A stretch of DNA of 64,000 bases, taken from Phoronis australis. Lineage: Eukaryota; Animalia; Phoronida. The notes under the pieces were generated by a model. The model saw only the letters and a program-made list of their open reading frames with translations. It did no database searches and had not been told where the DNA came from. Made by a program: the position numbers and the translations under genes. The stretch is from contig NMRA01000650.1 of the NCBI GenBank assembly GCA_002633005.1, positions 119,260-183,259 of the forward strand, read 5' to 3'. This document shows, one piece after another, positions 1 to 40,027 of the stretch (within the stretch, counting starts at the first letter, position 1; each line of letters begins with the position of its first letter).

Positions 1-264
1 AAAACCCACTCGAAATGTTTATTGTTAAAAGTTCTCAACAGCTGTGATTCTCTTCAACTCAATGGAGTACATTTAAAACTTGAAGAGTTACGTGTAGCGA
101 CCACTAGCAAGAATAATCATCTTCAAAACATTTTAGTGGCGTGTATTCTGCTCTTCTAGAGTAAACTAACAGGACATCACAGGATTACAACTAAATATAA
201 CCATGTGCAGAATCGGCTAGCTGTATTGTTAACGTAGCTTAAAATTTTGTCTATTTATTCTCAG

Positions 265-376
265 GAAAACGGCGATTGACAAGAAAACTTCATGAACAGC
301 TGCTTCTGGAAGTTGTTGAACGTGTCAATGGCGGTTATTTTGAAAGACTAAAGGGATTGTGTGAAGAATGGATTAA
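265..376 (+). CDS. Exon: DED1 helices 1-2 (KRRLTRKLHEQLLLEVVERVNGGYFERLKGLCEEWI)
   Basis: ttattctcag|GA...ATTAA|gtaaga. 112 nt, same length and phases as its paralog at 22699-22810. The LLLEV...F.RLK.LC pattern resembles the DED N-terminal half of FADD/caspase-8. Confidence 0.8.
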
Positions 377-3300
377 GTAAGAAAAATAACATTACATGTT
401 TATGAATTATTCATATGCTGCTCAGTGACTGCAAATAATCGCCAGCAAAATGATCGCCATTGCACCAATCTTCGTTATAAAGTTATCTAGAGCACTATTT
501 TGGTCGGTCATGAAGTGACAATTTCAAAGTGAAACAAAATGGTTAAGAAGTTGTTGATTCAGTCTAAATAGACAAAGAACTCCACTTCGATCACAAAAGC
601 ATGGAATACGACCACGTTTTTGTCAGAGGCATAAAATAAAATCACTCACCTTTGTTCTAAACGACATGTCCGAAGGTAATTGTGGAATTACTAGCTCTCA
701 GATATTAGCTTTAAAGGGCCACAATCACGAGATGTCGCTTCGAGTTGAGTTACCGAAAAACAAGTATTCATGGCACTACTGGCGCCGTTTAATGTTGAAC
801 GTGTTCCAGGTTTGTGTCGGTTCAGTTTTTCAGGAGCTTTTGGACTGCTGGTATATTTTGCCAAATATCTTCAAAATTGTATTTTTATCTAAATAATTGT
901 GAATCTTTTAAATAGAACAAATCCCGTAGAGATTGAATTGTGACCTAGTACCAAACTGTTGCTAATTGGATCACGAGAACTGTCATTTTAGCAAAAATGA
1001 ACAAAAAATAGAAAGTCACATCTGTAATACCTGTAATACCTGTCACGGACAGGATCATTGGGGATATGCTGGTGCATTATTCCTCTCCCTAGACCATCCC
1101 CGTGACAGCAGAACTCCAGGGCTGACGTCACATCTGTAACAAAACAACAGTGTCAATAACATGACTAAGTTTCCTCTTTACAAATGTTCAACATGAAATC
1201 TAAAAATGACTCACTGTTTTCAAAATTGTACTTTCGTTTTCGCGTCATACAACTTTGGATTTTTTAAGAAGTATAGTAAAAACTTTTTATAACCCCTTAA
1301 GCAAAAGTGAACATTTGCAAAAACCATTCAGAACAGCATTTTGGAGAACCTGCCATAAAAGATAATATGTTTCACAGGAATCCCAACAGTCTAGGATCTA
1401 ATGCTCTAAACTTAATCCCAAATTTGGCCATTTCCGCGGCTCCAACATAACCTTAAGCCACAATGAGCGTTGTAAAACAAAGTTTGTTTTCTCAAAATTT
1501 GGGTCTCATATATTAGCCTTCATGCTTCATGATATTAGAAATATCGTATCTTCACATCTCATTTCATGTCATTTTCCAACATGTTAAATAATTTTCATTA
1601 GGACATCAAAGATATCCCATTAGTTAAGTGCAGTTGTCAATGAAAATACATTTCCATTACAGCTGGAAGTAGTTTATTTTCTTTGAATATTAAATATGCG
1701 TCAAATTATTTGTGAATGTAATTAACACGTAATTAAGTAAGGTTAAGCACCCAATTTGGCGAACGTGTAGACTGGTATTTTTTCAATTGACCGCAAGGGC
1801 TCGCTGGTGATACAGTTTTATAAGGATGTAGCAGTAAAGATTTTTAAATTACCTTGAGGGTGAAGCTGCATCTGCTGCACTTCGTCTCAAATATAATGGT
1901 CAGTGGGTGAAAACTAACATCCCTGACTCCGTTGCACACCGAAGCCACAGGAATGTTTGCAATAAGCTAATGGCCAAGACTGGGCAACTATGGAACATGC
2001 CTAGCGATGTCCAGGTCACAACTTTAAATCATACAAACAATTTCTTCACGGAAATTGGCGATGGATGGCCTACCGCAGAACACAAGAATGAGGTGGTTTG
2101 TTATACGGACGGCTCTAAACTGGAAAATGGCCAGACAGGTGCTGGGGTCTACTTTCCAAGCCTTCCTGTTGCAGATGCAGAAAACTGGGTATCGTTGGGC
2201 AATCTTGCCACGGTGTTTCAGGCTGAGATCACTGCAATTAATAGAGCTGCTCAATTGGCACAACAATATAACACTGAACTTGGCAATCGGCCAATTATCA
2301 TCTTTTCAGATAGCCAGGCAGCAATAAAAGCCCTAAAGAAACTAAGGGTCAACTCTCGTTGTGTTAATGCTTGTATTAATGAGCTTAACAAGCTTGCAAT
2401 TGAAAGAACCGTCAATATACGCTGGGTCAGGGCCCATGTGGGAATTGATGGCAATGAGAATGCAGACAGACTCGCAAAGATAGGAGCAAGCGTTCTGCAT
2501 TTTGTGCCTGAACCTGCTATCCCGGTATCTTACGGATGTTGCAGGATGAGTATACGCAACTGGGTACATACCCAGTCAGCAGCCCAGTGGGCATCACTTA
2601 ACTCCTGCAGAGAAACCAAGGAGAATTTTCCCAACGTGATCGAACCAAAAGGTTCAAAAAGCCTTCTGAGTCTAGATAGATTGGGTATAAGACACGTCAT
2701 TCAAATTTTGACGGGCCACTGCAACCTAGCCCGACACAGACACATTACTGGGCATATGAGGAGCCCTGTGTGTCCCGAGTGTGGTACTGACGTAGAATCT
2801 CCTAAACACCTGGTAGAGTCTTGCCCAGCTTTTTATAGGCTAAGGAGCAACCTACTGGATGGCATTGTTACATGCCTACAACATATAGTGCATGGCAACA
2901 AATGGAAACGTCTGTCCGTTTTCCTAAAGGATACTGGCAGACTTGAAAACTTTCTTCACGAGGAGCCATAATTGGGGTCTCGTGCCTTTGCTCAGGTGTT
3001 TTGTGCAATGGGCCCCAACCATGAGGCCTGCGCACGTCTGATGCACCGCAAATGACATCAGACCACCTGCACTGTATTTTTTTTTTTAAAGATTTTCAAT
3101 AGCTTGTCGACACTTTTAGTTAAATAATTCTGCTCCACATGTTTGTCGAGTTTCTCATCCATGCCAGATCGTGAAAATGTATCAACCAATCAGTCAATAA
3201 TCAATTTTAGTGATCTGTAGCTACCCAGGCACAACTGAGGGTTAAATGTATTTTTCCAAACAAAACGTACAAGATAGGCAACACGTATAATGTACTAACG

Positions 3301-6300
3301 TACTAAACCGCAGATTTAACAAATTTGCATTTTTAATTCAGTTTTTGAAATTTGGAAAATATTTCCTCTGAACTCCCAATTTTGCGGAAGTTTATTGTTT
3401 TACGATGTTGCTTAATCTTTTTTTTTCGTTTTATACGCCCACATGCCTACATAGGTATTTCTTTAAGAATACTTCGCCGTCTCCTCGATTTGTTGAGAGA
3501 GAATTTACGTGCATCTTTTCTAGACCGCCTACTACATATAGTCCCCGTCTTAAACGTTTTTAAGGGTTTTTGGCGTCAGCTTTCTCCCTACCAAGCTATT
3601 TTAAGGATTGAAATATTGACATGAGATTGGCATATTCATATACGTTAAGGAAGATTGTGAACACATGCGTGGTCCTTCTGGGACGCAGACGGCTGACGAT
3701 GATTTTTTCGATGGCTCTTCACAACGGTGGCACCACCGAATGGCAAATTTGTTTTCTCGTTTTCGTCCGTAAGTAATACTTGCTTAGACGGATTGTTATG
3801 AATTTTGGCATATAGTTTGTGCCAAAGCGAATATAGCCATGACTGTGTGTATTATTGACGTATTTTAAGCCATTTAGTGCCAGTGACCATTTTTTGAATT
3901 TAGAAAATGTTTATTGGCGCACGTCTCTGTAAAGTCTCTAGTATATTTAACATTTTGAAAACTGACATATGTATTTCTACCGAGAACACCACAGCTAACG
4001 TTGACTTTCGGAAAGTTTCGACTGCTGTGGCACCTCTTTATGGCGTTTGTTTGTTTTTTCGTCTGTGGTGGTATATGGTCCTAAACGTCATGCAGGATCT
4101 TTAATAAATTTGTCTGAAATGGTTGTTTACATTTCTTAAATCCTTCACGGATTTTCATGAAACATGGTAAATGAATTCTATCCAACATACAATAACAATC
4201 TTTTAAATTGATTCAACAGATTGTGTGTTACCTTTTGGTCATTTCTAATGCAAATAAACTGTTGTGCAATTTCCCTACCTATTGGACTAACCAGTGTAAA
4301 AAAAAATCACTTATGAAAATTAACGGACGTGTTTCTACCTTGACGTGCACTATTGCCGACGGTTACATACTGTTGCGGCTCCATATTTATAACTGTGCTG
4401 TTCAATACTATTTCCCCCGTGGATCATCGTGGAATTGGACACGATTCCAATGTACATGTATCTACCAGAGATATAGTACAAGTGATGTGGACTTTGTGTC
4501 AAATGCGACTCCTGTTCAGTCACCAATTTGCGATTTTGTTTTTCTTTAAATATTGATTGATATTCCACAAATCGGTATGTGACAACGCCAGTCCTCTTTC
4601 TCAGGGATTTGACCAGTGTTGTGTAGTTTGTCGTCTGGCTCAATACTCTTGAACTTTCTTGCCTAGAGTATTATGAAGAAGGGCAGGTGTGCTCCTACCG
4701 AGGAGGGTATTCCTGACTTTGTGTCTATCCCTATCAGATTCTCATCAAGTTAACTAGAGTCACTCTATTCACTGGAAATTTTTAAAATAATGACCATGTC
4801 GGGTATCTGCGCGGTACATGCAATGCTCGCAGGGTGGTGCTCATCAACGCTTCGTGTTTCTCTTGTTTCATTCGGCAATGCCAAGATACGTTTGACGCGC
4901 CACATGCCTTAACCGCGTTTTGGAAGATTGGCCGTTATTTAAACATTCTACTCAAAATCAAATTTACATTTTCCAGTTTTCCTTTTAATGAAATCGAAAT
5001 AGCTGGGCTTTATTCTTCGCTGAATTAATCATAACTTCAACTGGCCCAGTGAGTCGAGCTAAAACATCGAATGAAAATTCTGGATATTAAATTCATGCTC
5101 GAACTTCAAATTGCAACGATAGTCTCATAAAGTATATACTGGGATTGGAAAGTCGACCACTTGAGACATTATGCATTCGAGAATAGAATGCGCATCTTAG
5201 AAATTATATATTCGATTATGGAATGTTGACCACCATAGACATAAGGTATTTGAACATAGAAAGTTGTCCACGATAGTCGCCATGTTTTCGAGCATTGAAT
5301 ATTGTCCACCTTAGACACATATACGAGCACAGTACACTAGACACGCATCTGGCGTTTCACAAAAGTGGAACAGAAAATGCCAAAAATAATTTTGAGTTGA
5401 TATCGATTGAAAAGATTAGACCACGATCCTCTTTACAACCAAGGGTGGCTAAAGCTCCCGTCACACGGGAGGTGCGGTGCCACTGCGGTGTTTGGCATAA
5501 GCCGCAGTTGCACAGACATAATTGTTGTGGTGCTGCAGTGGTTCCGCCATTGGTCACCGTATCACGACGGAAAACTGTCAAAACCGCATTCTTTCGCGGT
5601 GGAACGGCAGAAACTTTGAACATGCTCTGCGGTGGGATCGCCACTACACCGTCATGACCGCCGTGGCACCATACAGGGACCGCAGAAGCACCTCCATCAC
5701 CACCGTGCTTCCTCAGTACAACTGCGTGCAATCAGCTAAAACACAGACTGGCGACACTACGGCGATCTCGTGACGGTTCTACTGCCGTATTACCACTGAA
5801 GCACTGACGGTAAGGGGTTACCGCTGCGGAGTCAGCGAGGAATTTTATAAAGTTTGGCCGTCTAACTGCGGTGCTACTTCGTTCCTACGGCGGTGTTATT
5901 GAGCTGTTGTACGGCAATGACATTTCAACCGAGATTGCACTGAATAATAGGTCCGTTTTTCTTCTTAAATTTCAGTTTTCTAAAAATCTTCAGTTCAGAT
6001 TGACAGTCAGTATTTAAAGGTCAATGGAATGACAGATAACAACAGAATTTGATCGTCATACAGCTGTAGCTGCATCTGCAGCAACACCAGTCAAACGAGA
6101 GCGCTCGGAGGAGCGACCCCCGGCGGAATTAATCGAAAAGACGACGATGGGGAGGACGACGACGATCATGACGATGAAGGCGGCAATTATGAATAACACG
6201 ATAGTATTCATGTGACTAGCGAAGAAATCAAATAGAGAGCATACAATCAACTACAATAAAGAACAATAGATGGCGCAACATGACGGACGAGCCATGCTTT

Positions 6301-9300
6301 GTTCCCACGTTCCAAAATAGGTGGCGCTATGTGACAGTCTGCAGAGTAAAGTTGTGTTTACAATATTTGGCGTGGAATTCCACTCTACAGTAGGACAGTA
6401 CTGGTTGGGTCAGTCGGAGTCAACTAGGCATAACCAAAACAAAGTGAACTGAAAGCCAGCCAGCTTCGTGCTTGCATAGGTGACCGAAGGAACAACAGAT
6501 AATTCAAAAGTAGACGTCGTTGCGCAAAATGGAAAATATCTTCTGGAAGCCCCTTCAAAACTATATCTAAAGCGATTGTTTGGCAAAAATCAATACATTT
6601 TTCGAAAAAAATGAGAATTTGCCGTTTTTTTTTTGAAATTCAAATAACTCGAAAACGGTAAGTCTGAGAAATACGCTCTGGCAGGCTTTTTGAAAGTGCA
6701 TACTTCAAGGAATCCACATGCAAAAATTCACGTCATTTGCTCTTCCCATCAAAAACGCGACCGCAGAACGATTGAAAACCTGTGAACATGCGCCACAGCC
6801 GCCATCGTGAAAGTGACTTCCAGTTAAACAATTTTTTTTAAAAGCTTATTAACAGCAACAAACACGTGACCAGTTTGAAAGTGATTGATTCGCAAATGCG
6901 CCCTCTACAGGAGAAAACGTTTTTGGCCATATTTCGGGGTCGCATGTGCCACTTCCAATATTTCCACCATCTTTAACCGGAAGTCAACCATTTTCTGCAC
7001 ACTTGTACCACATGCCCTGTAGTATAATTTTTCTGATTTTCAGCCATGTACGCCAAAAAATACGGCCTCTACGAGCATTTGACTGTGAAATCGGATACAA
7101 AATGGCCGCCACGTCCGCAATTTCGTATCTGATCATGACCAAAAACAATAGCATTCCAGTACTTCCCGATCTACGCTTCGTGTGCACATTTCCTGAAAAT
7201 CGGACGAAAACTGCGACCTCTAGAGAGCGAACAAAAAAAATCTTGCCGTCAGACCAACATACTTGGCGGAAGACGCTGGGCCAGACCTGAGCTGGGCGAT
7301 GTGAGACGTGAGCATTTTGGCCACTACAACCAGCTTGTGGTCGAGCTCAGTAGAGAGGATTCAGCCTGGTGCCAGAATTGCCTCAGCTAGATTCAGCCCG
7401 GGATGTTTGATGAGCTACTTGCTTATCACGAAGAAGGGCAGCAACTACAAAAAGGCCTTGTACCCAGAGACGAATGTGGCGGCAACTCTTCGCCACCTGG
7501 GCTCTAATCAAGCTCGATTTCCTGATCCCAGCAAACACACTATCTATGATGGTCAAGGAAGTCTGCCAGACCATTGTTGAAGCTTTTAAAGACGAGGTGA
7601 TCCAGTTCACTACGACCCGAGACGAATGTCCTCAGTGACACCGCAGTGGTTCAGCCCTGGATCTTGAGTAGCACCGCGAAAAAAAAANGTCGAGCTCAGT
7701 AGAGAGGATTCAGCCTGGTGCCAGAATTGCCTCAGCTAGATTCAGCCCGGGATGTTTGATGAGCTACTTGCTTATCACGAAGAAGGGCAGCAACTACCAA
7801 AAGGCCTTGTACCCAGGGACGAATGTGGCGGCAACTCTTCGCCACCTGGGCTCTAATCAAGCTCGATTTCCTGATCCCAGCAAACACACTATCTATGATG
7901 GTCAAGGAAGTCTGCCAGACCATTGTTGAAGCTTTTAAAGACGAGGTGATCCAGTTCCCTACGACCCGAGACGAATGTCCTCAGTGACACCGCAGTGGTT
8001 CAGCCCTGGATCTTGAGTAGCACCGCGAAAAAAAAACGCGTGTGACGGCTTGGGGAAAAACTACTGGCGGTGTCACAAAGGTGATGTCAGTTTTGACCAA
8101 AATCCGAAGTGGCGCCGCGCCTCTAGTGTGACGGGGGCTTAAGATCGCTTCAAGCAATGTGTTTTTATCAATAGGTAATGTTAAATCTTACAGAACCTTG
8201 CCCGTGATACTCTTTCTGAGAGTCGTCACATTCCAGAAGGAATCACAGGGGCGTAACTGCTAAAAGTTTTGAGAATCCTCAATGTTTGAATTTGTATTTG
8301 AGAGCTGAGGAATCGTCCTGATTTGTTTCAAGAAGGTTTTTTATTCTCATGTACAACTTTTGCTCAGGCTTATGTAAGCAGGCGTGATTTTAGATTGACG
8401 TGATTGTTACTTTTCAGACCAGCAACACTACAGAATATGACAAACACTCGAGAACTTCTTGAACAGCTTCAGCGGCAAGCGATAATTAATGTTGGAGAAT
8501 ACAGTAAGCTAACCGACATGCTGCACCAGCTCCATCTGGAGGAACTTAAGGATCGAGTGGAAAAACTGTCAAGAGAAATAAAGGCAGCAGGTATGAGAGA
8601 TCAATTTTCTGTGAATATTCAACTGCCACTTGGATATAAGTTGGGCTTTTTGAGTCGCTGTGATTGTCACTGTTGTTTTAGCTTTGTTCTGGAAATGACG
8701 TAATTTTGTATGATAAAGATGCCATCTCTCGTTATAATCGGATTTCTAAGTTTGAAGCAAGCACCAGTTTCTGAAGAACAGTGAGTCCATGTATAATCGG
8801 GAAAAGAAAGAAGTTCCATGTAAGTTGCAAGTTTTAAGGAAACATCGTAGCTGAGACACATAAAACATGTGTGAACGTATAGGAAACCCTTTACCTGTAC
8901 TAGTGATTTCAAATAGTACGCAATCATTATTTGATAATGAAATGAACACTAATAAAAACCTTGTCTTCTTTCATTAGGGCAAGCTTGAAATATTACCATA
9001 CCCATTTACATAAAATTGTTTTACAAAACGAGACTTTTGAGAGCGAAGTTAAATGCGAGTCAAACAACATGTTGCACGGGACGTTATGGACATTAATTTA
9101 TTTCCGAAAGCATTACATATGACATTGGTGTCTGTTCGTCCGCTCTTGGAAATTGAACACGCAGTGTTCAGTAACAGTTTAAGCACACATAGATGTAACT
9201 CGCAAAGTAGATCGCATTAAAACCAAATTACGTGCAAAACGGCAAATGACACTAGATGTTACCTTAATGATGTCTTCAAACTCGCGCAACCCAAAGCACT

Positions 9301-12300
9301 TCCGACAAGTATGACAATATTCACAGGAGTGCCGAATAACCGTGGCTCGGTCTCAGCTACCTTAGGGAACTCGGTCATTTATAAACAAGTTCGCATTCAC
9401 AGAACTCAACGCGAAGGTGAATTGTATTTCTATAAAATGAACAAAGACAAGGCGATTCTCTTCTCGTTAAAGGCAGCCTGTTACCAGGTTTACAGTACCA
9501 TTTCATTTCAAGTTGTTGTGTCTTTAGATTGAGTCAGTTTCAATGGAAACAAACAAACTCGTTATCTAGAAATATAAATGTGTGTGAGAAAACCATGGAC
9601 TTCAAAATGAGGAAGTAGAGTTCTCATTTACTGCAGTTACCTGCAGTGTCTTCTGCCGAACAGTTGATTAAAAACCCGCTGATGTTTTTTGGCATTCATT
9701 ATAATCTGCTTAAAGTTAACAATTCTGGAATTAGAATTACACTGGTTGCAAACAACTTGTCGAACACCCCTAATAAATCCGCTGTGGTTTGGTGCATATC
9801 ACGTGTGTCTGCTGTTTCTTATAATTTGTAAACGTCAACAATAAGCAGACTGTATTGCTGTTTTATGTTGGAATTGATTGGGTCTACTTGTAATACTACT
9901 ATTGTCAATCTAGTGTTGACGATACTTAATAGAGTCTCAGTCAATGGAATTGCTAGTCTTGGCTCGTAAAGAGATGGATTTAACGGTGAATCACGCCTCG
10001 TTGATACATCTATTGCGGACATTATTGTCGTATTACACCACTTGGTGGCGCTCAACAAAGTCTGTTGAAACTGATTCCAGTTTAAAATTCCCATAGTTTA
10101 CGCCTACCGAGGAGCAGCCGGCTTTTCCAAAAAATACGAACAGAATGAGCTGTTTTCACCCCAAACCCACGGTTTCTATGCAATTACTACGAAGTGAAAA
10201 ATGGTGCGTTGAAACTGACAAAATACTTCACATTACAGGAATCAGGTGAGAAGTGAATGTTCACTAGCAACATGTTTTTTTTTTCAAATCCAAAATAGCT
10301 ATTCGGCTTCTGAATTGTCCTCTAAATTTCCCGTTTGCAAGCAGTAAGTGTTTTAGAAAAACCAAGACAGAGCAAAACCTGGGTTAAAAAGTGAAGAGCT
10401 AACAATCGTATACTCAGAACAAGAAAAGGCCAGTCGTAGCCATCACGAGCAACTTAAAATGTCCAGCACAGCCTGCATGCGCAAATTATTATTGAAAATG
10501 GAATTAAACCGTGACTCAATTTGTTGAGGACCAACAGGACCACCTATTACTCGAGCTATACTTCAAATCAAACGGCCGCGCCTTCTATGATGGTGAGAAC
10601 TTATATCAACCTATAGATTTGAATTAAATTAGGAATCGACATCATACTAAATAAAGGAAGGTTCCAGTTGTCACTGGATAATAAATTAGAATCCATACAG
10701 ACCCAAATTTGTTTCTAATATTCTTTGGCTTGTCTGAAATAAAATGCATAGAATCACTGTTTTCACAAAGGGAGAGCTCCTAACAGGCGTGGTCCACGCC
10801 CCTTTAGTTTAAACCTTTCCCTGCCACCTGATATGAAACACGAGCGTACAACTAGGATGAAGATCTATATCTTGTATCACTTTGATTTCTTCGCAGAAGT
10901 CTGAACTTTTAAGTTTGTATTTTGAAAATTACACGATCTTTATAGCATATCGCTTGGCTAAAATCATATTACTTTTTGCTAAATGACCTCTTTACAAAAC
11001 CGCGATTTTACCGATTTTAAAAGGCAGTAAGTGTTTTTTTTTTCTTATTTTCAAGGAAACATAGCTTCACATTTAATTATGTGACAAAATTAGTTCTGTT
11101 TGGGCGAGTCAACTCTTGACAACCTTTGGAACATAAAAAGGTGTTCCAGGATCTCTTTTTTATTTGTGTGCAGTGTTACTTGTAAATATTAAACTATTTT
11201 AAAGGAACTGTTATTACCTAAGCTAAACATAGCAAGTAACTAGAACAATACAAAGAGTTTAATTAACCACTAAATGTAGTTAATCAGCCAAAATCACGCT
11301 TCTAGAAGTGTTTATTTATATCACAGAATGGCTCCCAAGTGACGCAAAATATCTTAAACAGTCTTGGAAATCGGAATGTGTCATCATCTTTCTAATAGAC
11401 AGAGGATTACATCATTCTCCAACACTGCATGAGCAAACATAGAACACCTAATTGCCATTAGGAGACACCTCTATTGCGGACACCCAACCATGTGAATACA
11501 AATGCAAAATTTCACAAGAAGAACATAGTGTGTTTAGTGTTGGTAAGGTAGTAAGTGACTATTTTTGTATGAAATCAAAAGCCTCAAAGTAGCTCGACTT
11601 TGCACAGCACTGAAAAAAATGCCAAATGTGGAAAAAAAACTGTAGGATAGCAACAAAGTGCCACGTGATACCGACGTGTACTTGCTTGGCATTAAATATG
11701 TGTCATACGTAAAACAGTTCCAAACAATGTCACCGGTAGTGTACATGTAGGCGTTACTTCTATTTCGAATGTTAACAGGGCCAGGATTTGGCCCCTATAA
11801 CTGCAAAAAGAGAATGGCTCCTTTGGAAGATAAATTTGTTGAGTACTATAGTAGTCTGTGGTACACTTTTGACCCGGAAATATCTATTTCAACAACTCAC
11901 CCATTCTTAGTGCACGGCAGAAGATGCCATCAACCACTGGGGCTGGTGACAACGGTAACTCCTTGGACTCGAAATTAAGGGTGAAAACCATTCGTAAAAG
12001 CTAGCAGAAAGTTGAAATACCAGCTTGAAATTGGGTCATTTTCACTTGCCAAAATGGAGTTGCTGCACCTTTTTTGGAATATCACTTTTACGAGCCAAAA
12101 TCTGAAAAGACGACAGAAAATACATGCACTGTTTGCGTTCTCTCGAATTTTCCGATCGGATGTTTATCACCCAGCTTTGTACCAATGTACGTGTGGTAGA
12201 ATTGCGCTGCCAGTTCCGGTCGCAGCCATTAAATGCCCCTAGTCGTCATAAATTTCACTTGCATCAGGTTGGCACGCATATACTGAAATACAAAGAGATG

Positions 12301-21300: not shown

Positions 21301-24300
21301 ATAACTGTGGTAAATCAAACGCAAAGCTGTTAACGTAAACAAAACTGCTGCACACATGTTATGTGGCCGTCTGCAGAAACCTACTCGAACATACGGACAC
21401 TCGACTTCAGACACTGAACGAAATGATAAGATGTGGCGACGTTAGACAAAAATGAACGCATTTCTCCAGTACTGCTAGACCTGCTAGGCATGGAACTCTA
21501 AAACTGCAACAATATCTACGCAATGCCGAATGCGGTCAAAGAATTCGGACTGACTACCGCTTAGATCGCCATTGTTTTGTCTACATCGAAGCTCAAAGGT
21601 CAAACGTCACATTTCCTTATAAGGGCAGTTTTTGGAGACTCCGGCACTTCGGTGGCCGGGATACAAAAACCAAGCGCACGTGCATGTTATTAAAATTGAG
21701 GTGAAGCATTATTTTGAATTCAAGAGTTGTGCTTGTTGAAAACTCAACGTACCTGGATTTTTTACCGATTTAAAATTTAACCGCCATAAAGGCCACTGTC
21801 GGTTTCTTGTCAATTCTGAACTGACCTTACCCACCGTCGGTTGGTGTGAAAGTTACCGGTCAAATTCCTCCATATCTTGATCACCGTTTCGCGATATACT
21901 CTCCAAGAAAGTTTATTTGCATTGAATGACAGGTTTTCTCTTTTAACTTATAACTACAATGGGTACATTAGCTAATTAAAAGTCGAGGCATTTCTTGCTA
22001 GCTGTGTTTCCTGAATAAACAAGCGGATGAACATTTGCAAACGAGAATCAAAATGTGAATCAAAATGTGAATCAAAAACAATGTAACAACATTTGTACAT
22101 TCAAGCAGTATACATACACTCTTAAATATAGTATGGTCAACATTCAAGAACCGTTCCTCACCGGATATACAGGGTATTCCAGTCACGGAAATGGTCAATG
22201 ATTATCTAATTTCGGCCGAGGTACCAAGAACATTGTGTTTAAGATTCGCACTTTATTATGTAACAGATAAATGCGTCGTGGTATGTTACGTATTACTTAA
22301 CTTGGTGTTCTGCATTCTGAATGCTTTCATTTGGAATAAATTTTTGTAATGAGGTCTAAAAATATAAAAAATCATGAGGTTGGACAAGACTACGCCTCGC
22401 TGTTTAGACACATCCATGTAATTCTCTTCAATTTAGTGGATTACAGCCATGCTTCACATCTGTCAAAAACTTCAACTACAGAGCGACGTGTGGCAATAAC
22501 TGTTATGAAAATCGCCGCCATATATATTGCCGGTGTTGCATCTGGTGTCTTGAGAAAAGAATTACAAAAGTGACATCACATCCTGGTATTATAAGTAAAT
22601 CAGGGGATGTTTAGGATGTCGTTGGATTATGTGTAAACTAATCAAAACGTCTATCAATACCATTAACATTCCTTATACGTGTGCCAATATATTTTCAGAA
22701 TCACCGAGAAGCCGAGCAGAACTTCATCAACTACTACTACTGGAGGTTGCTGACCAACTCATTGATCGTGATTTTCAAAGACTAAAGACATTCTGTGAAC
22801 ATTTGATTGTGTAAGAAAAAACAACCTTAATATTATTTGCGAAAGCATATAATCTAGGGTGTATCAAAGCATTTGGTCCGGTCAAAAACCACGACTTTCA
22901 ATTTTCTGATAGTAGAAATTATGCCAAATTGTGTTGAGCATATACCAATTTGTTAATAATTGGGGCACATGACGTTGTCAATTTTTTAAAGAATAGCAAA
23001 AAGAAAGGTGCATATGTAGCAAAACAACAGTGTTACATGATTAAATTTCGATGTGAACGATCAATGGCGGTTACAGTTTTCTAAATCATGAAAAGAATAT
23101 TACGTTGATATATTCGAGGCTGCAATACGGTAGCATTTTTATTTGTTGTTTTGATAGAGTGTGGACAGCATGTTAGTTTTTGAAAAGCTCACTTGATAAG
23201 GCTTTTGAATTTTGAAAATTGAACAAGGGATGTCACTTATACAGTTTGTGACTTTAACAGCCTAGCATGTTTGTTTAATGTTTCAATAGTATGTTCCGCA
23301 TTACTTCTGCTCGGTGTGTCATATAATTGGTCGAGTTACCAAACTACCAGTCAGAGTACTCTAAACTCGTGAATCTCTTACATTAGTCTACATATTTCGT
23401 GCTATGAGAAATATGTCATTTCTCCTCACATTTTCCAACGTTTTAAATAGCTCTGAATGGGTTACCACACGTGGTTAAGTTACACAATGTCTTAACAATT
23501 CACCCAAGCAGATCCCTGCTGATGCAATTTCAAAAGAAATCAGCAAGTGAAATATCCGGATTCTCGAGTATATCGTCGATGAGAGTGGTGAAATATAATA
23601 GCCAAACCACAACTTAAAAAATTGCCTTTTGTTTCTTTTTTGAAGTTTGGTTTATGAACTCCCAATTTTGCGGTAGTTCATTGTTTTACAATATTGCTTA
23701 TTTTTTCGATCTTATGCACTCACATTTTCATAAGTGACTGAATTATGCTGTCATACCCTGTCCACTATGCGTGTGTCCAGCGTCCGCTGCGGCATTTATC
23801 TCCGAATTCTCCTGATGGATGTTTATAAAATTTTGAGGTTACGATTCTTTCATAGATTAGAAGGCTTTGCCGAATGTTTGGGTGGATCTGATTAGACGGC
23901 GGTGTGCCCCTTCAGGGTAATTTTAGTTTTAAGGATTCCACTGTACGTTTGGAGTTCCGGATAAGTTTTTGACGAATAGGTATTTGTTAGAAAAAACTAT
24001 GGCCACTGCTCTTTTTGTTCGGAGACTTTCGACACATAATATTTTTTACATTTTTTATACATTTACGAAAACATAAAAAACAAGAACATAACGTAAACAC
24101 ACACACACGCACACACACACAAACACACACACAAACACACACACAAAACACACACACGCATACCCCACGCTTAATGCTCTTGACTACTAAGAAAAACAGT
24201 TTCAAAGTTACACCATCATTTTGTACAAATTCTGAACTCAAATCCTTACGAGCACTATACATTTCACTCACATAATATTGTTTGATTAAGTTAAAAAAAT

Positions 24301-27300
24301 CTACTTAGAAGTAAGGTTTTCAATCTGAACATTTGGCTACAAATAAACTGCTTACCCAATAATAAATACGTTTTTAAATTTTCCCTTTTCATCAAAAAAG
24401 CCATAATTTATATTGTTGCATGAAAAAGTGCCGACACACTGGGGATTTGCTTTGTTTAAAATTTCATTATTGTGTCCAGAATGAATTTACAGTTTCACAT
24501 TCCCAAAATGAGCGTTTCAAAGTCTCTTTTTATTGTCCACAAAAGGAACAAGTGTCGTCATTCGTAACTTGAATTATTTTTAAAAACGAGTTGCTAGTCA
24601 AAATTCTCGTCAAGAGTCTGAATAGAAGCCACCTAATTCTTGGGTCTCTTGTTATGTTACATAGAAGGGAATTGATAAACCTCTTCCCATGATTTTTTTC
24701 GTATTTACTTTAAGTTCTTTTGCCGACTTTGACCCGGCTTTTGAAACTTCGGAACTATAATTTAATTGTGTACAAATATGTTGACACCCTCTCCCACAAC
24801 TTTTCCGTTTCATTAAAATCTTTGGTACGACAGGATGATACGTATGAAAACTAACATCTGTATCAATAGAACATTTCTGCTGGTGCTTAAATATCACTGA
24901 CATTAGACTGTTATGATTCATTAAGTTCATTTGATAGTTAAAACATCCACAGTAAATCAATAGTTCAAAATATTACCGTTAGGGGAAAACAAGTCCTTTA
25001 TCATAAAGAATATGCCTCCATAGTACCAACTGCTGCACAAAATACTTTTTGCTCCTGCCTCCATTCATCTATCTGATTTTTGATTTCCAAACAATTTCCA
25101 AAGGAGATAACACATTCAAATATCTTTCCACAATCAAAATTAGGCAAATTTATCTCAAGAAAGTAAACTCCATACTTGGCAAAAATTTTAATCTCTGGAA
25201 AACTCAAATGAAACAAACTTAGACTGACCGCTTACAATTTTTTAACAAGTTAATCTTTAAAGCCCTACAGAAGGAAAATATGTTAATGCTTCTAATACCT
25301 CCTTCATTACGATTACAAACAGTTCGGTAGCGCTTAATTTTGTCACTTCCACCTTGCCAGAGGAATTCAAAGAAAATTGAGTTTAGTTTTTCTTAAATAT
25401 GTTTCGAAGACTGTGGCAAGGATACAGGGTATCTGAAGATTGACAATTTTTAAACCGCAAGCGCTTTCATTGCTGTGATCCTCCAAAAAGGTGTCAAATT
25501 TCTTTTGGAACAGTTTTTCAAAATTAATGCAATATCTTTCATTTTCGCCAAGTAATTTTGGTTTGCCAGATTGTAGTTGTAGTTGTGATTTTCTGTTCTT
25601 TATGCCTGGAAATCTATTACGTTCTTTGATGGGTGTTCCTGAAATTCTGTAAAAAGTTGCAATCCCGAGACCTGCCTCGCTTGGATTTCACCTGTCGTTT
25701 TTTTGTTTTGCTGTGCCCTACATGTTTGTTGTCTAGTTCTAGCCCTAATTTCTTAGAGGATTAATCAGAAAGGCAGGTGTGCCCCTGTTGAAGAGGGCAT
25801 TCCTGAATTGTTTTGGCCTCCTTGAAGGCTAAGCTTACTAGTGTCGCTCTATTCCCTGGTGGTGTATCAAATAATGACACTTTGGTATGCGTGGACTGGA
25901 ATCCACACAGCGGGTGTGCAAATCGACGTCCCACGATGCTGTTGTTTATCTAGTGCTGACGGAGATACCTTTAACACGACACAAATCCTGATCTCGTAAT
26001 CCAATATCTCAAGGGTTGGGATATAAGCGTTCTAGTACTCAAAATAATATTTTAAAATATGCACTTTCGTTCCCCTTTTCTGTGAATTCCGGCCAGGCAA
26101 ATGTCCATTATACTGTGCTAAAGTTCAGTTGTGCTAAAATTCAGTACCATGTGTGAAAATGGTGTTATAGTCTCAAGTTCGCTTCTCATGGGCACTAGAC
26201 TCGAGCTAAAACTAGGAATGAAAACTCGAGATTTCATGTAAAAACTCAATCTTCAAACCTCTCAATTAAGGTGATTAACTGCAAACTATTTTTATAATGT
26301 CTGAAACACGACGTACCATCCCGTTTTTTTTCGCCAAAAATTGGGTTTTGTGATGAGCAACCTTCACTCAGATTTATTTGTGCAGGTGTGATTTTATATT
26401 TAAGTGGTCGTGAATGTTTTTTTTTGTTTCCAGACCAGTAATACTACAGAACATAACAGACACTGGGCAACTTCTCAAAGAGCTTGACAAACAAGCGGTC
26501 ATTGCAGTTGGGGATTATAGGAAGTTAATCAATATGCTGGACCTGCTCAATCTGAACGCAATTAAGAGACGAGTGGAAGAACTGGCGCGTGATATAAGTG
26601 CACTTGGTATGAGAGATTATGTTGACCTACTTCCCATGAACACTCAACTGCCACCTGTATAGATGTAACTGTCACGTGATATAAGTGCACTTAAGTTGGT
26701 ATCAGAGATGATGTTGATATTCTGTACATCTATTGAACACTCAGCTCCCACTTGTACAGATGTACTCTGTAGGTTGCCATTTATCATCGAAGCTATGAAT
26801 GTTTTTTAATTTGAGCTTCGTAATTGCCACCTAATTACTCTCAGGATAACAGTACGTAAAAGTATAACCAGGGAGAGAAACTAAAATGCGATGATTTTAA
26901 AGAAAACACCCTACTGATACAGTTAAGAACAGGGGGGAATATAAACCCATAGCAATTCCAGTTATTACCTAAATACGAAACAATGTATGCTGTTTGTTTA
27001 TTGTAAACACGGATTATTACCATACTCATTTACATAAAAATAGTCTCACATAATGAGACTTTCGGTTCTCAAATGGTTTTCATAACGAGCTAGGGTGTTT
27101 GTGAATTAGAACTTCATTTTAGTATTTATAATTTAAGTTGCTTTTCATTGTAAATTCCTCATTTTATCGTGCATGAACTTTGTGCAGCAGAAAACGCTTT
27201 AAGTGTGCATGAGTGGCAGTGTCTAGTACATTGTCAAGCTGAGGTGTACCGGTTAAATGCCAAGTTTGCCTTCGCAACAGTTGTGATATATTAATGCCAT

Positions 27301-27336
27301 TTACTAAGTGTGTTGGTCATTTTTTCAGGTGTATAA
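265..27336 (+). CDS. Spliced gene model (5'-partial): DED - linker - ZU5 - UPA-like - DED death-fold adaptor, join(265-376, 8418-8590, 12673-12780, 13211-13255, 14301-15154, 18762-18816, 22699-22810, 26434-26606, 27329-27336); alternative last two exons 29749-29921 and 30659-30666
   Basis: Every exon has a pyrimidine-rich AG acceptor and every internal exon a GT donor. Intron phases 1|2|1|1|1|0|1|2|1 chain into one frame of 1640 nt (+1 upstream nt = 546 codons + TAA) with no internal stop. The first exon starts in phase 1, so the start codon is upstream of the window. Confidence 0.8.
1845..3086 (+). mobile_element. 5'-truncated non-LTR retrotransposon (R1/LOA-like, I group) with intact RNase H and CCHC zinc knuckle
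   Basis: ORF 1907-2971 (open back to ~1850) has RNase H motifs YTDGSK, FQAEI, SDSQAA and WVRAHVGIDGNENAD, plus LTGHC and CPEC-x8-H-x4-C. It is flanked by the TSD TAAAGATTTT (1835-1844 and 3087-3096). No RT core is present. Confidence 0.92.
6290..7270. mobile_element. Non-coding interspersed element nested in the Harbinger copy (possibly Helentron-associated)
   Basis: It interrupts the transposase region. It carries motifs common in invertebrate non-autonomous elements (AAAATGGCCGCC, TGCAAAAATTCA, GGTGGCGCT) and ends in a short hairpin. Boundaries are approximate. Confidence 0.4.
7340..8036. repeat. Direct duplication of ~348 bp either side of n at 7688 (probable assembly overlap)
   Basis: 7340-7687 and 7689-8036 are nearly identical and abut a single n. 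Confidence 0.9.
8418..8590 (+). CDS. Exon: DED1 helices 3-6 (PATLQNMTNTRELLEQLQRQAIINVGEYSKLTDMLHQLHLEELKDRVEKL...)
   Basis: ttttcag|ACC...GCAG|gtatga. 173 nt, phase 2-1. The ELLEQL...I....Y..L..ML..L...L...V pattern is DED-like. Confidence 0.85.
12673..12780 (+). CDS. Exon: acidic linker (EPHVRGDIERQISDMCVDADELEYDYGKGQKLDTTA)
   Basis: tattacag|AG...GCAG|gtctgc. 108 nt, symmetric phase 1-1, open in the required frame. Confidence 0.65.
13211..13255 (+). CDS. Micro-exon: linker (GLKIDAGSSLQMEKE)
   Basis: gtttgttcccattag|GA...GAAG|gtgaag. 45 nt, phase 1-1. The donor is only moderately strong. Confidence 0.55.
14066..14160. mobile_element. 95-bp hairpin / miniature inverted-repeat element
   Basis: GTCTGATATAGCGTGCCCGAATTTTGAAAACCGGTT is the near reverse complement of AACTGGTTCTGAAAATACGGGCACGTTATATCAGAC. 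Confidence 0.75.
14301..15154 (+). CDS. Exon: ZU5 domain followed by a Cys-containing beta-rich UPA-like region
   Basis: atccctatag|CA...GTCCAT|gtaagt. 854 nt, phase 1-0. It begins TIDGATGGVIRWKEVQLRVPPNAI (ZU5 signature GG.....V.L.(I/V)PP.A), contains FSYPIEIRM, and the ZU5 part ends at FYCKTFS, the position of the HFS motif. The UPA call rests on position and beta-strand character only. Confidence 0.8.
15509..16900. mobile_element. Non-autonomous TIR DNA transposon with 5-bp TSD (hAT5- or Transib-type)
   Basis: Perfect 22-bp termini CACGGGTGAGAAACAACATGAC extend to ~100 bp of imperfect TIR with subterminal repeats. AATAT is duplicated at 15504-15508 and 16901-16905. No transposase ORF. Confidence 0.85.
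17001..18138. repeat. Direct duplication of ~568 bp either side of n at 17569 (probable assembly overlap)
   Basis: 17001-17568 and 17570-18138 differ by scattered SNPs only. Confidence 0.9.
18762..18816 (+). CDS. Exon: Thr-rich linker (EDSAVRKELATHTTPNTT)
   Basis: tttcgttttag|GAA...ACTG|gtaaga. 55 nt, phase 0-1, exactly what is needed to join the ZU5 exon to the DED2 exon. Confidence 0.75.
20124..20243. repeat. 10-bp tandem repeat (ATTTAAGGAT)n, about 11 units
   Basis: Directly visible. Confidence 0.95.
22699..22810 (+). CDS. Exon: DED2 helices 1-2 (SPRSRAELHQLLLLEVADQLIDRDFQRLKTFCEHLI)
   Basis: attttcag|AA...ATTGT|gtaaga. 112 nt, phase 1-2, clear DED pattern, paralog of 265-376. Confidence 0.85.
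24096..24160. repeat. Imperfect (CA)n microsatellite
   Basis: Directly visible. It lies at the 3' side of the minus-strand Tx1 remnant. Confidence 0.95.
24200..25520 (-). mobile_element. Degenerate L1/Tx1-clade retrotransposon, ORF2 C-terminal part
   Basis: Minus-strand translation gives FFEFLWQGGSDKIKR...EGGIRSINIFSFCRALK (~25250-25380) and the zf-RVT-like TRDPRIRWLLFRLLTRIL...CSFCG..KETL..SFWEC..V.SFW (~24470-24650), with stops. Part of it is repeated at 28749-29150. Confidence 0.8.
26434..26606 (+). CDS. Exon: DED2 helices 3-6, version A (PVILQNITDTGQLLKELDKQAVIAVGDYRKLINMLDLLNLNAIKRRVEELARDISAL)
   Basis: gtttccag|ACC...CTTG|gtatga. 173 nt, phase 2-1, paralog of 8418-8590. Confidence 0.85.
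27329..27336 (+). CDS. Terminal coding exon, version A (G-V-stop), followed by presumed 3' UTR
   Basis: cattttttcag|GT GTA TAA. A phase 1 acceptor giving an immediate stop. Candidate AATAAA at 28393-28398. Confidence 0.5.
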
Positions 27337-29748
27337 ATCTCCCAACAACTGACGTCAGTCAGAGCTTTCCTAACCTTCACTGTGCTGGTGTGATTAAAAA
27401 CAGCCATACAGTGGGCGATCAAAGTCACGCGTGATATCACGCAGCGCCTTGAATACGTGATCGAATACAGTATATTCGTGTCGGTGATGTTGATTTGTAC
27501 GTGTGAATTTATCTTCGTCTGGATATCCGTTTATGTCTAGGTTGAATGCTTTGTAGTTGCTTCCACCTTCAGCTGATGTTGACAGCGTGGTGATAATCAA
27601 TTATTACCGTTATCAATTCACTTATACCTGTATTTTAGATGAAACGTACAACAGGATCTCATTTTACTGATTTAAACGTGGACTTCCCAAAAGCATCGTT
27701 TGAAAGGCTCTAAGGAGTTTAAACCTTCCACAATATTCATGAAAGTTGCTAGAAAGTTGAACTTTCCACAGATGACATCGCAAATGACTAAATTCATAAT
27801 AGGGTGAACGGATTTGAAATCATCAATGACTAAGTTCATTGTCACTGTCCATTGATGATCAAATGTCCATAACATTTCGCAACTTCGAAAATCAAAACCA
27901 TATTTCTATTTCTCGTGGAATACGTTATGGTGCAGGAATACCACGTTCAGGCAATGCTTTGAAAATATTAAAGTATTACTATTGAACTTCATTTTCACTG
28001 AACTAGAATAGTTTTAAGAATGTGTTTTTCAAACCTTTACAAAACACTTCTTGGCTCCTTTGGACTGTAATAACTATCTGTCGGACTTTTGTCGAGGTTT
28101 TGCGTCGCTACTGGTCGATAAAAATATGAATGTTTTGAAACTTTTGCGTAAAAACCTTGTCGAATTTTGAGCCAATGTTCTTAGACTAATCTGATTTTTT
28201 TGTTGTATGTAAGTCCAGCATCGTATGAATCAATTTCTCTGTTCCAGTTTGTAGTTATATCTAACACGGCCACACATGTGACGTATCATTATCCAATAAT
28301 AACTAAATGGCTTAAATGTAATAGAAATATGTGCAAATAGTGTAAAGCAGCACATGGACAATACCAGCTGCAATCCCTATTGTAAGACGTGTAATAAATG
28401 GTATTTGAATGTAAACTTTTAAAAAGTCAAAGGTAAAGATTTTCTGTTCGCAATAATTCAAGTGGAAAATACGCAGAGTGTCATTTGACGGTCTGCTATA
28501 GAGTAGTTTTTTCTCCGTCATGACAAAACAATGTAGTTCGCCAACGTCCACTCTCCTTACATGTATATGGTAGCAGAGCGTAGGACATATGGTGAAACTT
28601 ATATTTTATTTTTACGAGTTAAATAATTTTATTTGACCGTCTGATACCTGTTTTCCTTGCTTTCTGTGTCACTCCGCTCACTCATATGTCCAGTAATGTT
28701 TTTGCTCAGTTTATTTCAATGTCTGGGAATTTTGAATTTCTCATCTANTACACATTCAAAAATCTTTCCACAATCAAAATTAGGCAAATTTATCTCAAGA
28801 AACTAAACTCCATACTTGGCAAAAATTTTAATTTCTGGAAAACTCAAATGAAACAAACTTAGACTGACCGCTTACAATTTTTTAACATGTTAATCTTTAA
28901 AGCCCCACAGAAGGAAATTATGTTAATGCTTCTAATACCTCCTTCATTACGATTACAAACAGTTCGGGAGCGCTTAATTTTGTCACTTCCACCTTGCCAG
29001 AGGAATTCAAAGAAAATTGAGTTTAGTTTTTCTTAAATATGTTTCGAAGACTGTGGCAAGGATATGTGAAGATTGACAATTTTTAAACCACAAGCGCTTT
29101 CATTGATGTGATCCTCCAAAAAGGTGTCAAATTTCTTTTGGAACAGTTTTTCAAAATTAATGCAATATCTTTCATTTTCGCCAAGTAATTTTGGTTTGCC
29201 AGATTGTAGTTGTAGTTGTGGGTGTGCAAATCGACGTCCCACGATGCTGTTGTTTATCTAGTGCTGACGGAGATACCTTTAACACGACACAAATCCTGAT
29301 CTCGTAATCCAATATCTCATGGGCTAGGATATAAGCGTTCTAGTACTCAAAATAATATTTTAAAATATGCACTTTCGTTCCCCTTTTCTGTGAATTCCGG
29401 CCAGGTAAATGTCCATTATACTGTGCTAAAGTTCAGTTGTGCTAAAATTCAGTACCATGTGTGAAAATGGTGTTATAGTCTCAAGTTCGCTTCTCATGGG
29501 CACTAGACTCGAGCTAAAACTAGGAATGAAAACTCGAGATTTCATGTTAAAACTCAATCTTCAAACCTCTCAATTAAGGTGATTAAGTTCAAACTATTTT
29601 TATAATGTCATCCAACTGAAACACGACGTACCATCCCGGTTTTTTTCGCCAAAAATTGGGTTTTGTGATGAGCAACCTTCACTCAGATTTTTTTGAGCAG
29701 GTGTGATTTTATATTTAAGTGGTCGTGAATGTTTTTTTTTGTTTCCAG

Positions 29749-29921
29749 ACCAGCAATACTGCAGAACATAACAGACACTGGGCAACTTCTCAAAGAGCTT
29801 GAGAGAAAAGCGGTCATTGCAGTTGGGGATTATAGGAAGTTAATCAATATGCTGGACCTGCTCAATCTGAACGCGATTAAGGGACGAGTGGAGGCTCTTT
29901 CTCGTGAAATAAGCGAACCTG
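29749..29921 (+). CDS. Exon: DED2 helices 3-6, version B (PAILQNITDTGQLLKELERKAVIAVGDYRKLINMLDLLNLNAIKGRVEALSREISEP)
   Basis: Same splice sites and length as 26434-26606. Lies in the duplicated block after the n at 28748. Confidence 0.8.
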
Positions 29922-30658
29922 GTATGAGAGATAATGTTGACCTACTTCCCATGAACACTAAACTGCCACCTGTATAGATGTAACTGTCACGTGATACAAG
30001 TGCACTTAAGTTGGTATCAGAGATGATGTTGATATACTGTACATCTATTGAACACTCAGCTCCCACTTGTACAGATGTACTCTGTAGGTTGCCATTTCTC
30101 ATCGAAACTATGAATGTTTTTAAATTTGAGCTTCGAAATTGCCACCTAATTACTCTCAGGATAACAGTACGTAAAAGTATAACCAGGGAGAGAAACTAAA
30201 ATGCGATGATTTTAAAGAAAACACTCTACTGATACAATTAAGAACAGGGGGGAATATAAACCCATAGCAATTCCAGTTATTACCTAAATACGAAATAATG
30301 TATGCTGTTTGTTTATTGTAAACACGGATTATTACCATACTCATTTACATAAAAAAATTGTCTCACATAATGAGACTTTCGGTTCTCAAATGGTTTTCAT
30401 AACACCGAACGAGCTAGGGTTGTTTGTGAATTAGAACTTCATTTTAATATTTACAATTTAAGTAGCCTTTTCATTGTAAATTCCTCATTTTATCGTGCAT
30501 AAATGTACATTGTGCAGCAGAAAACGCTTTATGTGTGCATGAGTGGCAGTGTCTAGTACATTGTCAAGCTGAGGTGTACCGGTTAAATGCCAAGTTTGCC
30601 TTCAAAACAGTTGTGATATATTAATGCCATTTACTAAGCGTGTTGCTCATTTTTTCAG

Positions 30659-30666
30659 GTGTATAA
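30659..30666 (+). CDS. Terminal coding exon, version B (G-V-stop)
   Basis: cattttttcag|GT GTA TAA. Candidate AATAAA signals at 31723, 32299 and 32391. Confidence 0.5.
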
Positions 30667-32470: not shown

Positions 32471-32867
32471 AAGGAACCTATTGGTTCGTTAATTACAAAA
32501 GATAACACACACATTTACAATACCCAACGTGTAATTGAGTATCGGATACTAAGGGGCACAGGTTAGCATAGTACCAAATGGGTACATAATACCATATGAA
32601 TATTGGCCAATTGCCTGCAAAGTGGATCGAGCAAAACAGCAAATTCAATAAGACGTAGCAAATGGGTACAAACTGCCAAATGGGCAAATATCACATGTAG
32701 TACCAAGTGGGTACACCAAGCAGCCAACTGGGCTATAACAACCTGCAAAGCGGGTTCCGGACAAGCTGAGTTAGCAGACCAGCGGGAGTGTTAAAAAGAT
32801 ATATTGTAAGGAACCTGATGTTGTGGCTCAGTTTGTGCCACATGGGCAAGATTGTTCATGGATGAAC
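32471..32867 (+). repeat. ~400-bp interspersed repeat; inverted copy at 39632-40027
   Basis: Alignable by eye as reverse complements, e.g. GTAATTGAGTATCGGATACTAAG and CTTAGTATCCGATACTCAATTAC. Contains internal CAAATGGGTACA-type subrepeats. Confidence 0.85.
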
Positions 32868-35424: not shown

Positions 35425-35532
35425 GTAAACCTAGATGATGACCAAACCCTACGACAGGCATTAAACCTAGAGGATGACGAGACCCTGCGACAGGCATTAA
35501 ACCTAGAGGATGACGAGACCCTGCGACAGGCA
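35425..35532 (+). repeat. 36-bp tandem repeat x3 (translates as LNLEDDETLRQA)
   Basis: Unit TTAAACCTAGAGGATGACGAGACCCTGCGACAGGCA is directly visible. Confidence 0.95.
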
Positions 35533-39631: not shown

Positions 39632-40027
39632 GCCCAATGGACAACCCTGCCCATGTGGCACATACTGAGCCACAACACCACGTTCCTTACGATATGTTTT
39701 TTATCACTCCGGCTGGTCTGCTCACTCAGCTTGTCCGGAACCTGCTTTGCAGGTTGTTATAGCCCAGCTGGCTGTTTGACGTACCCCCTTGATACTTTAT
39801 TATATGATAGTTGCCCATTTGGCAGTTGTACCCATTTGGTATTTGTTATTGAATTTGCCGTTTTGCTAGACCCAGTTGGTAGGCAATCTGCCAATACCCA
39901 TTTGGTATTATGTACCCATTTAGTACAATGCTAACCTGTGCCACTTAGTATCCGATACTCAATTACACATTGGGTATCGTAAATGTGTGTGTTATCTCTT
40001 GTAATTAAGGAACACACCTGGTTCCTT
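39632..40027 (-). repeat. Inverted copy of the 32471-32867 repeat
   Basis: Reverse-complement alignment by eye. Confidence 0.85.

Follow-up and report, generated by a model that had tools for sequence, protein, structure and literature searches.

A transcribed, fast-evolving death-fold locus in Phoronis australis that may encode a ZU5-UPA-DED protein

The window analysed here is a stretch of 64,000 nucleotides (nt) of the phoronid Phoronis australis (GenBank assembly GCA_002633005.1, contig NMRA01000650.1, positions 119,260 to 183,259 of the forward strand), made up of AT-rich animal DNA in which repeats are numerous and introns long. It holds a death-fold locus that is real, transcribed and fast-evolving, and whose architecture may be described better by a ZU5-UPA-DED module, perhaps a repeated one, than by a ZU5-UPA core between two DEDs. 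Rebuilding the gene from its splice sites gave nine exons on the + strand, spanning 265-27336 and all bounded by AG...GT (Table 1). Spliced together they total 1670 nt, in which a single frame stays open for 555 codons and then reaches TAA, while the remaining two frames contain 32 and 51 stops. An earlier note on this DNA, made from its letters alone, had described nine phase-compatible exons with a stop-free frame of at least 546 amino acids, and the rebuilt model bears this out. Because the acceptor of exon 1 is in phase 1, the gene starts upstream of the window.

The open frame of exon 5 alone runs for 294 codons, for which the chance expectation in the window is 0.0003. Splice sites were scored with a matrix of approximate generic frequencies, not a trained model. 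On these scores exon 6 ranked top among the seven acceptor-donor pairs in 15154-22699, and it provides the required phase change; the acceptor of exon 9 was the best-scoring one within 26606-28747, and an ATTAAA lies at 27393. Exons 3 and 4 are dispensable for keeping the frame. Two further candidate exons of phase 1-1 were noticed from the sequence only (Table 1). The one at 9327-9416 had no match in a Pfam scan and was rejected as a homologue of exon 9, the alignment being only at shuffle level. A search of Rfam gave no match.

Table 1. Exons, candidate sites, duplicated blocks and other features of the window
Feature	Position	Strand	Remarks
Exon 1	265..376	+	first part of DED-like domain 1; phase-1 acceptor; joined to 8418 by 10 reads
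Exon 2	8418..8590	+	second part of DED-like domain 1; Pfam DED match; sense RNA depth
Exon 3 (predicted)	12673..12780	+	acidic linker, phase 1-1; open, in phase; splice scores weak, 1.3/1.5
Exon 4 (predicted)	13211..13255	+	short linker, phase 1-1; open, in phase
Exon 5	14271..15154	+	ZU5-like (about residues 1-145), then UPA-like (about 146-294)
Thr-Phe-Ser, candidate self-cleavage site F-S	14681..14689	+	exon 5 residues 137-139, end of ZU5-like part
Exon 6 (predicted)	18762..18816	+	linker, phase 0 to 1
Exon 7	22699..22810	+	first part of DED-like domain 2; duplicate of exon 1
Exon 8	26434..26606	+	second part of DED-like domain 2; 51% identity to exon 2
Exon 9, coding part (predicted terminal exon)	27329..27336	+	two residues and TAA
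Upstream copy of DED cassette	43..9037	+	collinear with 22417-27062, intron patches included
Likely second haplotype of 25110-28747	28750..32077	+	contains exon 8b (29749-29921) and exon 9b (30659-30666)
Possible extra in-phase exon	9327..9416	+	90 nt, phase 1-1; outside the nine-exon model
Second candidate exon	13843-13920	+	phase 1-1
377-codon frame in intron 1	1838-2968	+	RNase H, E=7.7e-16; C-terminal CCHC-type Cys/His pattern
Myb/SANT-like DNA-binding domain	43969-44286	+	PF13873, E=1e-07

The first part of exon 5 is very probably a ZU5 domain. Pfam ZU5 (PF00791) was the top family in all three scans, with E=0.064 for the whole exon and E=0.017 and 0.0052 for nested stretches whose trimming was chosen after the first ZU5 match; the scores were 14-17.5 bits against a cut-off of 21 and covered profile positions 6-80 of 97. 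In the Atlas, exon 5 scored 0.96 to ZU5/UPA clusters, and 9 of the 10 best family-bearing matches share family or clan with the top ZU5 match. The top cluster, 292 amino acids long, named UPA domain-containing and commonest in echinoderms, fits the 294-codon exon in length; the matches ranked 1, 4, 5 and 8 bear UPA names or families, a FIIND cluster stands at rank 6 (0.93), and the neighbours are mostly echinoderm and sponge clusters. On these Atlas matches and on its position, the second part of the exon is likely to be a UPA domain.

The helical domains on either side of exon 5 are probably DEDs rather than another death fold. Exon 2 matched Pfam DED (PF01335) with E=0.0013 and 19.3 bits (cut-off 35.9), and the match covers exactly the last 51 positions of the profile (32-82 of 82). 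Scanned singly, the half-domain exons 1, 7, 8 and 8b gave no DED match in Pfam, leaving one of five exons positive. The best matches of exon 2 among the chains of the PDB were to cFLIP (E=0.4), and the sole match of exon 7 there was the NLRP10 chain 2m5v (E=2.1). For exon 8 the best named Atlas matches were DED clusters (0.86 and 0.83), which serve as a lead only, two unnamed bacterial clusters ranking above them. PDB sequence searches with exon 8, with the DED alignment and with exon 5 returned chance matches only. The DED-like and ZU5-like assignments of the earlier note, and the role in death signalling that it proposed, thus find weak but concordant profile and language-model matches.

The two DEDs are products of a duplication that extends well into the surrounding DNA. 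Exons 1 and 2 have the same lengths (112 and 173 nt) and phases as exons 7 and 8, and 43 of the 86 aligned residues are identical. Ordered matches run through the introns as well (286-22720, 1131-23011, 1504-23374, 3305-23604, 4664-25754, 8354-26358 and 8991-27015), and 43-196 matches 22417-22600 with a score of 55 against a shuffle maximum of 37, so that the homology reaches the edge of the window. At the other end it gives out at 9037/27062, some 270 nt short of exon 9. Neither exon 9 nor its tail was found in a second copy after exon 2, where scores stayed at shuffle level although intron homology is detectable elsewhere in the duplicated unit, and no copy of exon 5 was found after exon 8; a second ZU5 exon in the window was looked for by tblastn and rejected, none being found. 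The simplest origin would be one tandem duplication with intronic breakpoints, giving the order linker-ZU5-UPA-DED twice and predicting a first ZU5-UPA upstream of the window. Since the duplicated unit reaches the window edge, DED1 may be the output end of such an upstream ZU5-UPA-DED unit. A protein that begins with a DED would require a non-tandem insertion or an extra deletion, and two separate genes would need exon 2 to be followed by a last exon and exon 3 to be preceded by a promoter, but neither element was found; these are arguments from parsimony, not proof. The earlier suggestion of a bivalent adaptor is weakened by a cassette whose collinear duplicate runs to the window edge. Between the DED copies 85 of 279 nt differ and neither a stop nor an indel has arisen, the probability of no stop under neutrality being 0.034.

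The gene had previously been given an end at 30666. This position falls in a copy of exon 9 within the block 28750-32077, a copy (96-97%) of 25110-28747 from which it is separated by one N at 28748, with 58 substitutions in 2836 aligned nt and a final 1.1 kb that is nearly identical. Single Ns occur at 7688, 17569, 28748 and 47898, and all four sit between direct duplicates that are 96-99% identical and range in length from 348 nt to about 3.3 kb, the three pairs other than that at 28748 differing by 0.9-2.3%. The block is therefore likely a second haplotype, that is, a haplotype overlap in the assembly and not a further exon, which puts the gene end at 27336 and leaves two DEDs in the window, not three. 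Exons 8b and 9b were rejected as a third DED because the repeat takes in just the second half of the domain and lies across one N, as the duplicates at the other three Ns do. False haplotype duplications of this kind could affect other findings in the same assembly. Between exons 8 and 8b there are 17 differences in 173 nt, where the background is 1.5% (P about 2e-9), and 10 in 57 residues. These differences exceed those of the flanks and lie mostly at the 3' end, of which a 75% tandem copy is present at 26580-26764; local gene conversion or balancing selection are possible explanations of the excess.

RNA was aligned to 1-19500, which takes in exons 1-6, at 88% likeness, using three raw-read runs chosen by species label (X1-X3, about 18% of each) and one contig set. 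Exons 1, 2 and 5 are transcribed in the sense direction. The junction 376-8418, which has GT..AG ends and lies inside DED1, was crossed by 4 + 6 reads in two of the four data sets. Back-calculated on the assumption that all depth in a 650-nt bin belongs to the exon, sense depths in X1, X2 and X3 were 9.7, 9.3 and 0.5 for exon 1, 39-54, 33-39 and 5-12 for exon 2, 6.5, 2.3 and 0 for exon 3, 6.6, 1.2 and 2.3 for exon 4, and 5.8, 5.0 and 1.4 for the main part of exon 5. Exons 1 and 5 co-vary over these three runs, both falling from high depth in X1 and X2 to low depth in X3, which supports one gene. We think it probable that one transcript runs from DED1 to DED2.

The ZU5-like part of exon 5 ends in Thr-Phe-Ser, a candidate site for self-cleavage between Phe138 and Ser139. 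PIDD1 cuts at HF/S, and CARD8 and NLRP1 at SF/S (PMC3210808); the His-Phe-Ser motif of PIDD1 is also given in PMC9162469. In CARD8 the residue before the Phe matters little, S295A having a small effect and S295Q none, the helper His270, 27 residues before Ser297, is needed, and the cut pieces stay bound (PMC3210808). His113 of exon 5 lies 26 residues before Ser139, a suggestive spacing by residue count. The effector fragment of CARD8 and NLRP1 is set free once the N-terminal piece has been degraded (PMC11202080), and in these two proteins UPA promotes the formation of CARD filaments (PMC11874512).

By analogy with these proteins, the product of the locus would be a soluble protein that cuts itself at Phe138-Ser139, the pieces remaining together and UPA-DED2 being held in check; for this first part of the scheme the case is evenly balanced. 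Loss of the N-terminal piece would then release the UPA-DED2 fragment, UPA would promote its oligomerization, and DED2 would recruit a DED-bearing caspase, seeding an assembly of the caspase-8/FADD type, a sequence of events that may equally well prove right or wrong. Taken as a whole, a CARD8/PIDD1-like ZU5-UPA-DED protein with self-cleavage, release of UPA-DED and recruitment of DED caspases is a tentative reading, to which we give slightly less than an even chance.

A number of observations weigh against this tentative reading. All Pfam scores, for DED and ZU5 alike, are under the curated cut-offs. Residues 136-294 of exon 5 gave no UPA match in Pfam, and the scanned exons gave no FIIND match. 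The Atlas recognition value of exon 5 was 2066, below the tool's line of 2300. Alignment-free AlphaFold modelling yielded low values of the predicted local distance difference test (pLDDT), 32 and 44, the latter for the ZU5 part. Foldseek found no match with the model of pLDDT 44, and a VIA wide fold search over 48,161 chains, run with that same model, gave its best Z (5.4) to unrelated beta sandwiches, placing the ankyrin ZU5 chain 3ud1 at rank 40 (Z 4.1) and CARD8 at rank 49 (Z 3.8); these fold searches were uninformative. In none of the collections searched was there a homologue with which to gauge conservation: exon 5 retrieved 0 of 1236 candidates among longer proteins, 0 of 340 among proteins near its length, and none at E<=0.001 among 1.84 billion protein representatives; none of the 53 and none of the 293 pattern matches in metagenome contigs was confirmed, nor was the single one in viral contigs; the alignment of the DED halves gave 0 of 1830 at E<=1. 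These blank searches limit the tests, and the uniqueness of the gene is not thereby established. The ratio of nonsynonymous to synonymous change (dN/dS) between the DED copies was 1.31 for exons 1 and 7, 0.82 for exons 2 and 8, and 0.43 for exons 2 and 8b, values that indicate weak constraint, with fast change and the frame kept.

The transcript data contribute to the same side of the balance. Of the eight junctions of the model, reads within 1-19500 support one, and the joins from DED1 to ZU5 and from ZU5 to DED2 were not seen among the joints listed. Among the 15 of 35 joints listed for 1-19500, the four other model junctions were not found; note that the listed joints come mostly from repeats and that the weakest of those based on reads have about 10 reads, so that non-listing decides nothing. 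The junction check called for in the earlier note thus confirmed 376-8418 and left the seven others unconfirmed, and the single protein it described, with a DED on each side of a ZU5 core, is likely rather than shown by junction reads. Depth in X1, X2 and X3 was only 1.5, 1.5 and 1.8 over the last 204 nt of exon 5 and 0, 3.1 and 0 over exon 6, which is covered in one of the three runs; this fall counts against a clean single transcript, or else reflects divergent alleles. The strand-specific depth of exon 2 is about 4-5 times that of exon 1 in X1 and X2. Given this excess, reads from other loci probably align there at the 88% threshold, pointing to near-identical DED exons (paralogues) elsewhere, and read-through beyond the exon 2 donor, to a stop near 8701 and an AATAAA at 8951, is possible.

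The main rival to the self-cleavage mechanism keeps one gene and makes its product an uncleaved scaffold or inhibitor, in which ZU5 folds back on a DED, or in which atypical DEDs are decoys that damp caspase-8-type complexes. The candidate site is TFS, neither HFS nor SFS, and so lacks the His of PIDD1; the RxDL of cFLIP aligns to LEEL in exon 2 (DED1) and hence to LNAI in exon 8 (DED2), which means that the E/D-RxDL charge triad is absent from both DEDs. Both features fit a scaffold or decoy and speak against a cleaving, caspase-recruiting protein. There is precedent too, as the ZU5-UPA-DD module of UNC5B and ANK2 sequesters its death domain (PMC9162469) and CARD8 isoforms also inhibit caspases (PMC11202080). 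However, the protein keeps Phe-Ser where it would be expected, neither CARD8 nor Nup98 depends on the residue before Phe (PMC3210808), and FADD does not self-associate through RxDL, a hydrophobic patch mediating binding in FADD and murine FLIP instead (PMC4558505). We regard an uncleaved scaffold or inhibitor as rather unlikely.

Two other explanations would break up the locus itself. If exons 1-2 were the end of an upstream gene, exons 3-9 could form a tandem paralogue resembling CARD8, with a short disordered N-terminus, ZU5-UPA and one DED. Such an arrangement would suit the extension of the duplicated unit to the window start, the lack of any junction from exon 2 onward among the joints listed, the greater RNA depth of exons 1-2 compared with exons 3-5, the stop and AATAAA that an unspliced exon 2 would reach, and the in-frame Met in both exon 3 and exon 4. 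It is unlikely, however, in that no homologue of exon 9 or its tail lies downstream of exon 2, 9101-12350 shows no first- or last-exon depth consistent across runs (bins of 0-0.5, in which a separate last exon as deep as exon 1 would not fit), and the exon 2 donor and the acceptors of exons 3, 4 and 5 are all in phase 1. Part of the locus might instead be a young pseudogene, a decaying duplicate with much of the RNA signal coming from paralogues elsewhere, as the dN/dS near 1 between the DED copies, the excess depth of exon 2 and the uneven depth of exon 5, at a likeness threshold of only 88%, could suggest. Decay is hard to reconcile with an intact frame of 555 codons whose 16 splice ends are all preserved, with DED copies and versions of exon 8 that are free of stops and indels, with an open exon of 294 codons and with spliced reads at 376-8418, and we consider it improbable.

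Several mobile elements and repeats accompany the gene. The 377-codon frame in intron 1 is likely the 3' end of a non-LTR retrotransposon and showed RNA depth on both strands. Also in intron 1, 5850-7240 is a highly transcribed repeat with depth above 100x, mostly antisense to the gene, with reads 90-95% alike and one loose poly-A end at 7240. Inverted repeats at 15504-15680 and 16770-16906 (85-92%, about 1.1 kb apart), which lie between exons 5 and 6, are possibly a non-autonomous DNA transposon. The Myb/SANT-like domain further downstream presumably derives from a Harbinger-type transposon. Dispersed repeats of 420-460 nt pair 32406-32859 with 39637-40092 and 36827-37238 with 56705-57119 (81-84%), and a 36-nt tandem repeat with an open frame occupies 35426-35532, for which Pfam found no family.

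The closest working model for the tentative ZU5-UPA-DED protein is CARD8/NLRP1 (ZU5-UPA-CARD), which was absent from the earlier note, as was the candidate cleavage site. Like the end of CARD8 and NLRP1, the predicted protein has ZU5-UPA, a linker and a C-terminal death fold, with Phe-Ser at the end of ZU5; like CARD8, it has a His 26-27 residues before the Ser and an acidic linker before ZU5 (12 of 49 residues acidic here). In NLRP1 the FIIND has a death fold before it, an N-terminal PYD, as well as after it. Unlike these proteins, the phoronid model has DED-like domains in place of CARD and TFS in place of SFS; it drew no FIIND match from Pfam, has a second death fold directly upstream, and shows neither NACHT nor LRR within the window. 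With PIDD1 it shares the ZU5-UPA-death fold end, a candidate F-S site and the lack of an apparent transmembrane segment in the model. It differs from PIDD1 in having one ZU5 in the window, not two adjacent ones, no His before Phe-Ser, and a DED-like domain rather than a DD (the C-terminal fold being 50% identical to the domain that scores best as a DED); no LRRs were seen, the N-terminus lying outside the window. The gene belongs to neither the CARD8 nor the PIDD1 family, for it shows no HFS, neither a FIIND nor a CARD profile match in Pfam, and no DD.

UNC5 and the ankyrins have the same order of ZU5, UPA and death fold, but here an Ig/TSP, membrane or ankyrin-repeat part is missing from the window and no such domain was matched by Pfam on the scanned exons, ZU5 is preceded in the model by linker exons and a DED-like domain, the death fold is DED-like and there is no detectable sequence similarity. 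With FADD, caspase-8/10, cFLIP, PEA-15 and DEDD the resemblance lies in weak matches, by profile and by sequence, to DED and cFLIP, whereas the phoronid DEDs lie about 360 residues apart instead of forming a rigid tandem pair, lack RxDL, and have no DD or protease domain with them in the window. The locus also resembles the shuffled death-fold proteins of marine invertebrates, in which death folds have been recombined with sensor modules in lineage-specific ways: hybrids such as DED-NACHT are known from amphioxus (PMC2575513), invertebrate expansions include fusions of UPA-ZU5 with TRADD-N (PMC8195603), and sponges have NACHT-ZU5 (PMC12909245). The exchange of death folds behind ZU5-UPA was already known, the CARD8 of the anole, a lizard, carrying a PYD there (PMC11258412). 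No description of a ZU5-UPA-DED protein was found in the titles, abstract openings and excerpts searched, most subscription journals lying outside that search; the label 'ded' is given to some FIIND proteins in a figure legend of PMC3210808, which may bear on novelty. Because death-fold shuffling in marine invertebrates is well documented, the surprise is limited.

The known outputs of ZU5-UPA are DD (PIDD1, UNC5, ankyrin), CARD (CARD8, NLRP1) and, in one lizard, PYD, and a DED would complete the set. As no relative was detectable among the 1.84 billion representatives, such genes are probably under-annotated. A bolder and unlikely extension would be a 'DED inflammasome', a CARD8-like tripwire made of tandem ZU5-UPA-DED units, each cut at Phe-Ser, which would release UPA-DED fragments when its N-terminal piece is degraded and would activate caspase-8-type enzymes without FADD or a death receptor; the family to which it belongs would be an invertebrate one that has expanded and evolves fast because pathogens press on it. 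If the proposed mechanism is true, a self-cleavage and release switch of the inflammasome type would be linked directly to caspase-8-type death in an invertebrate.

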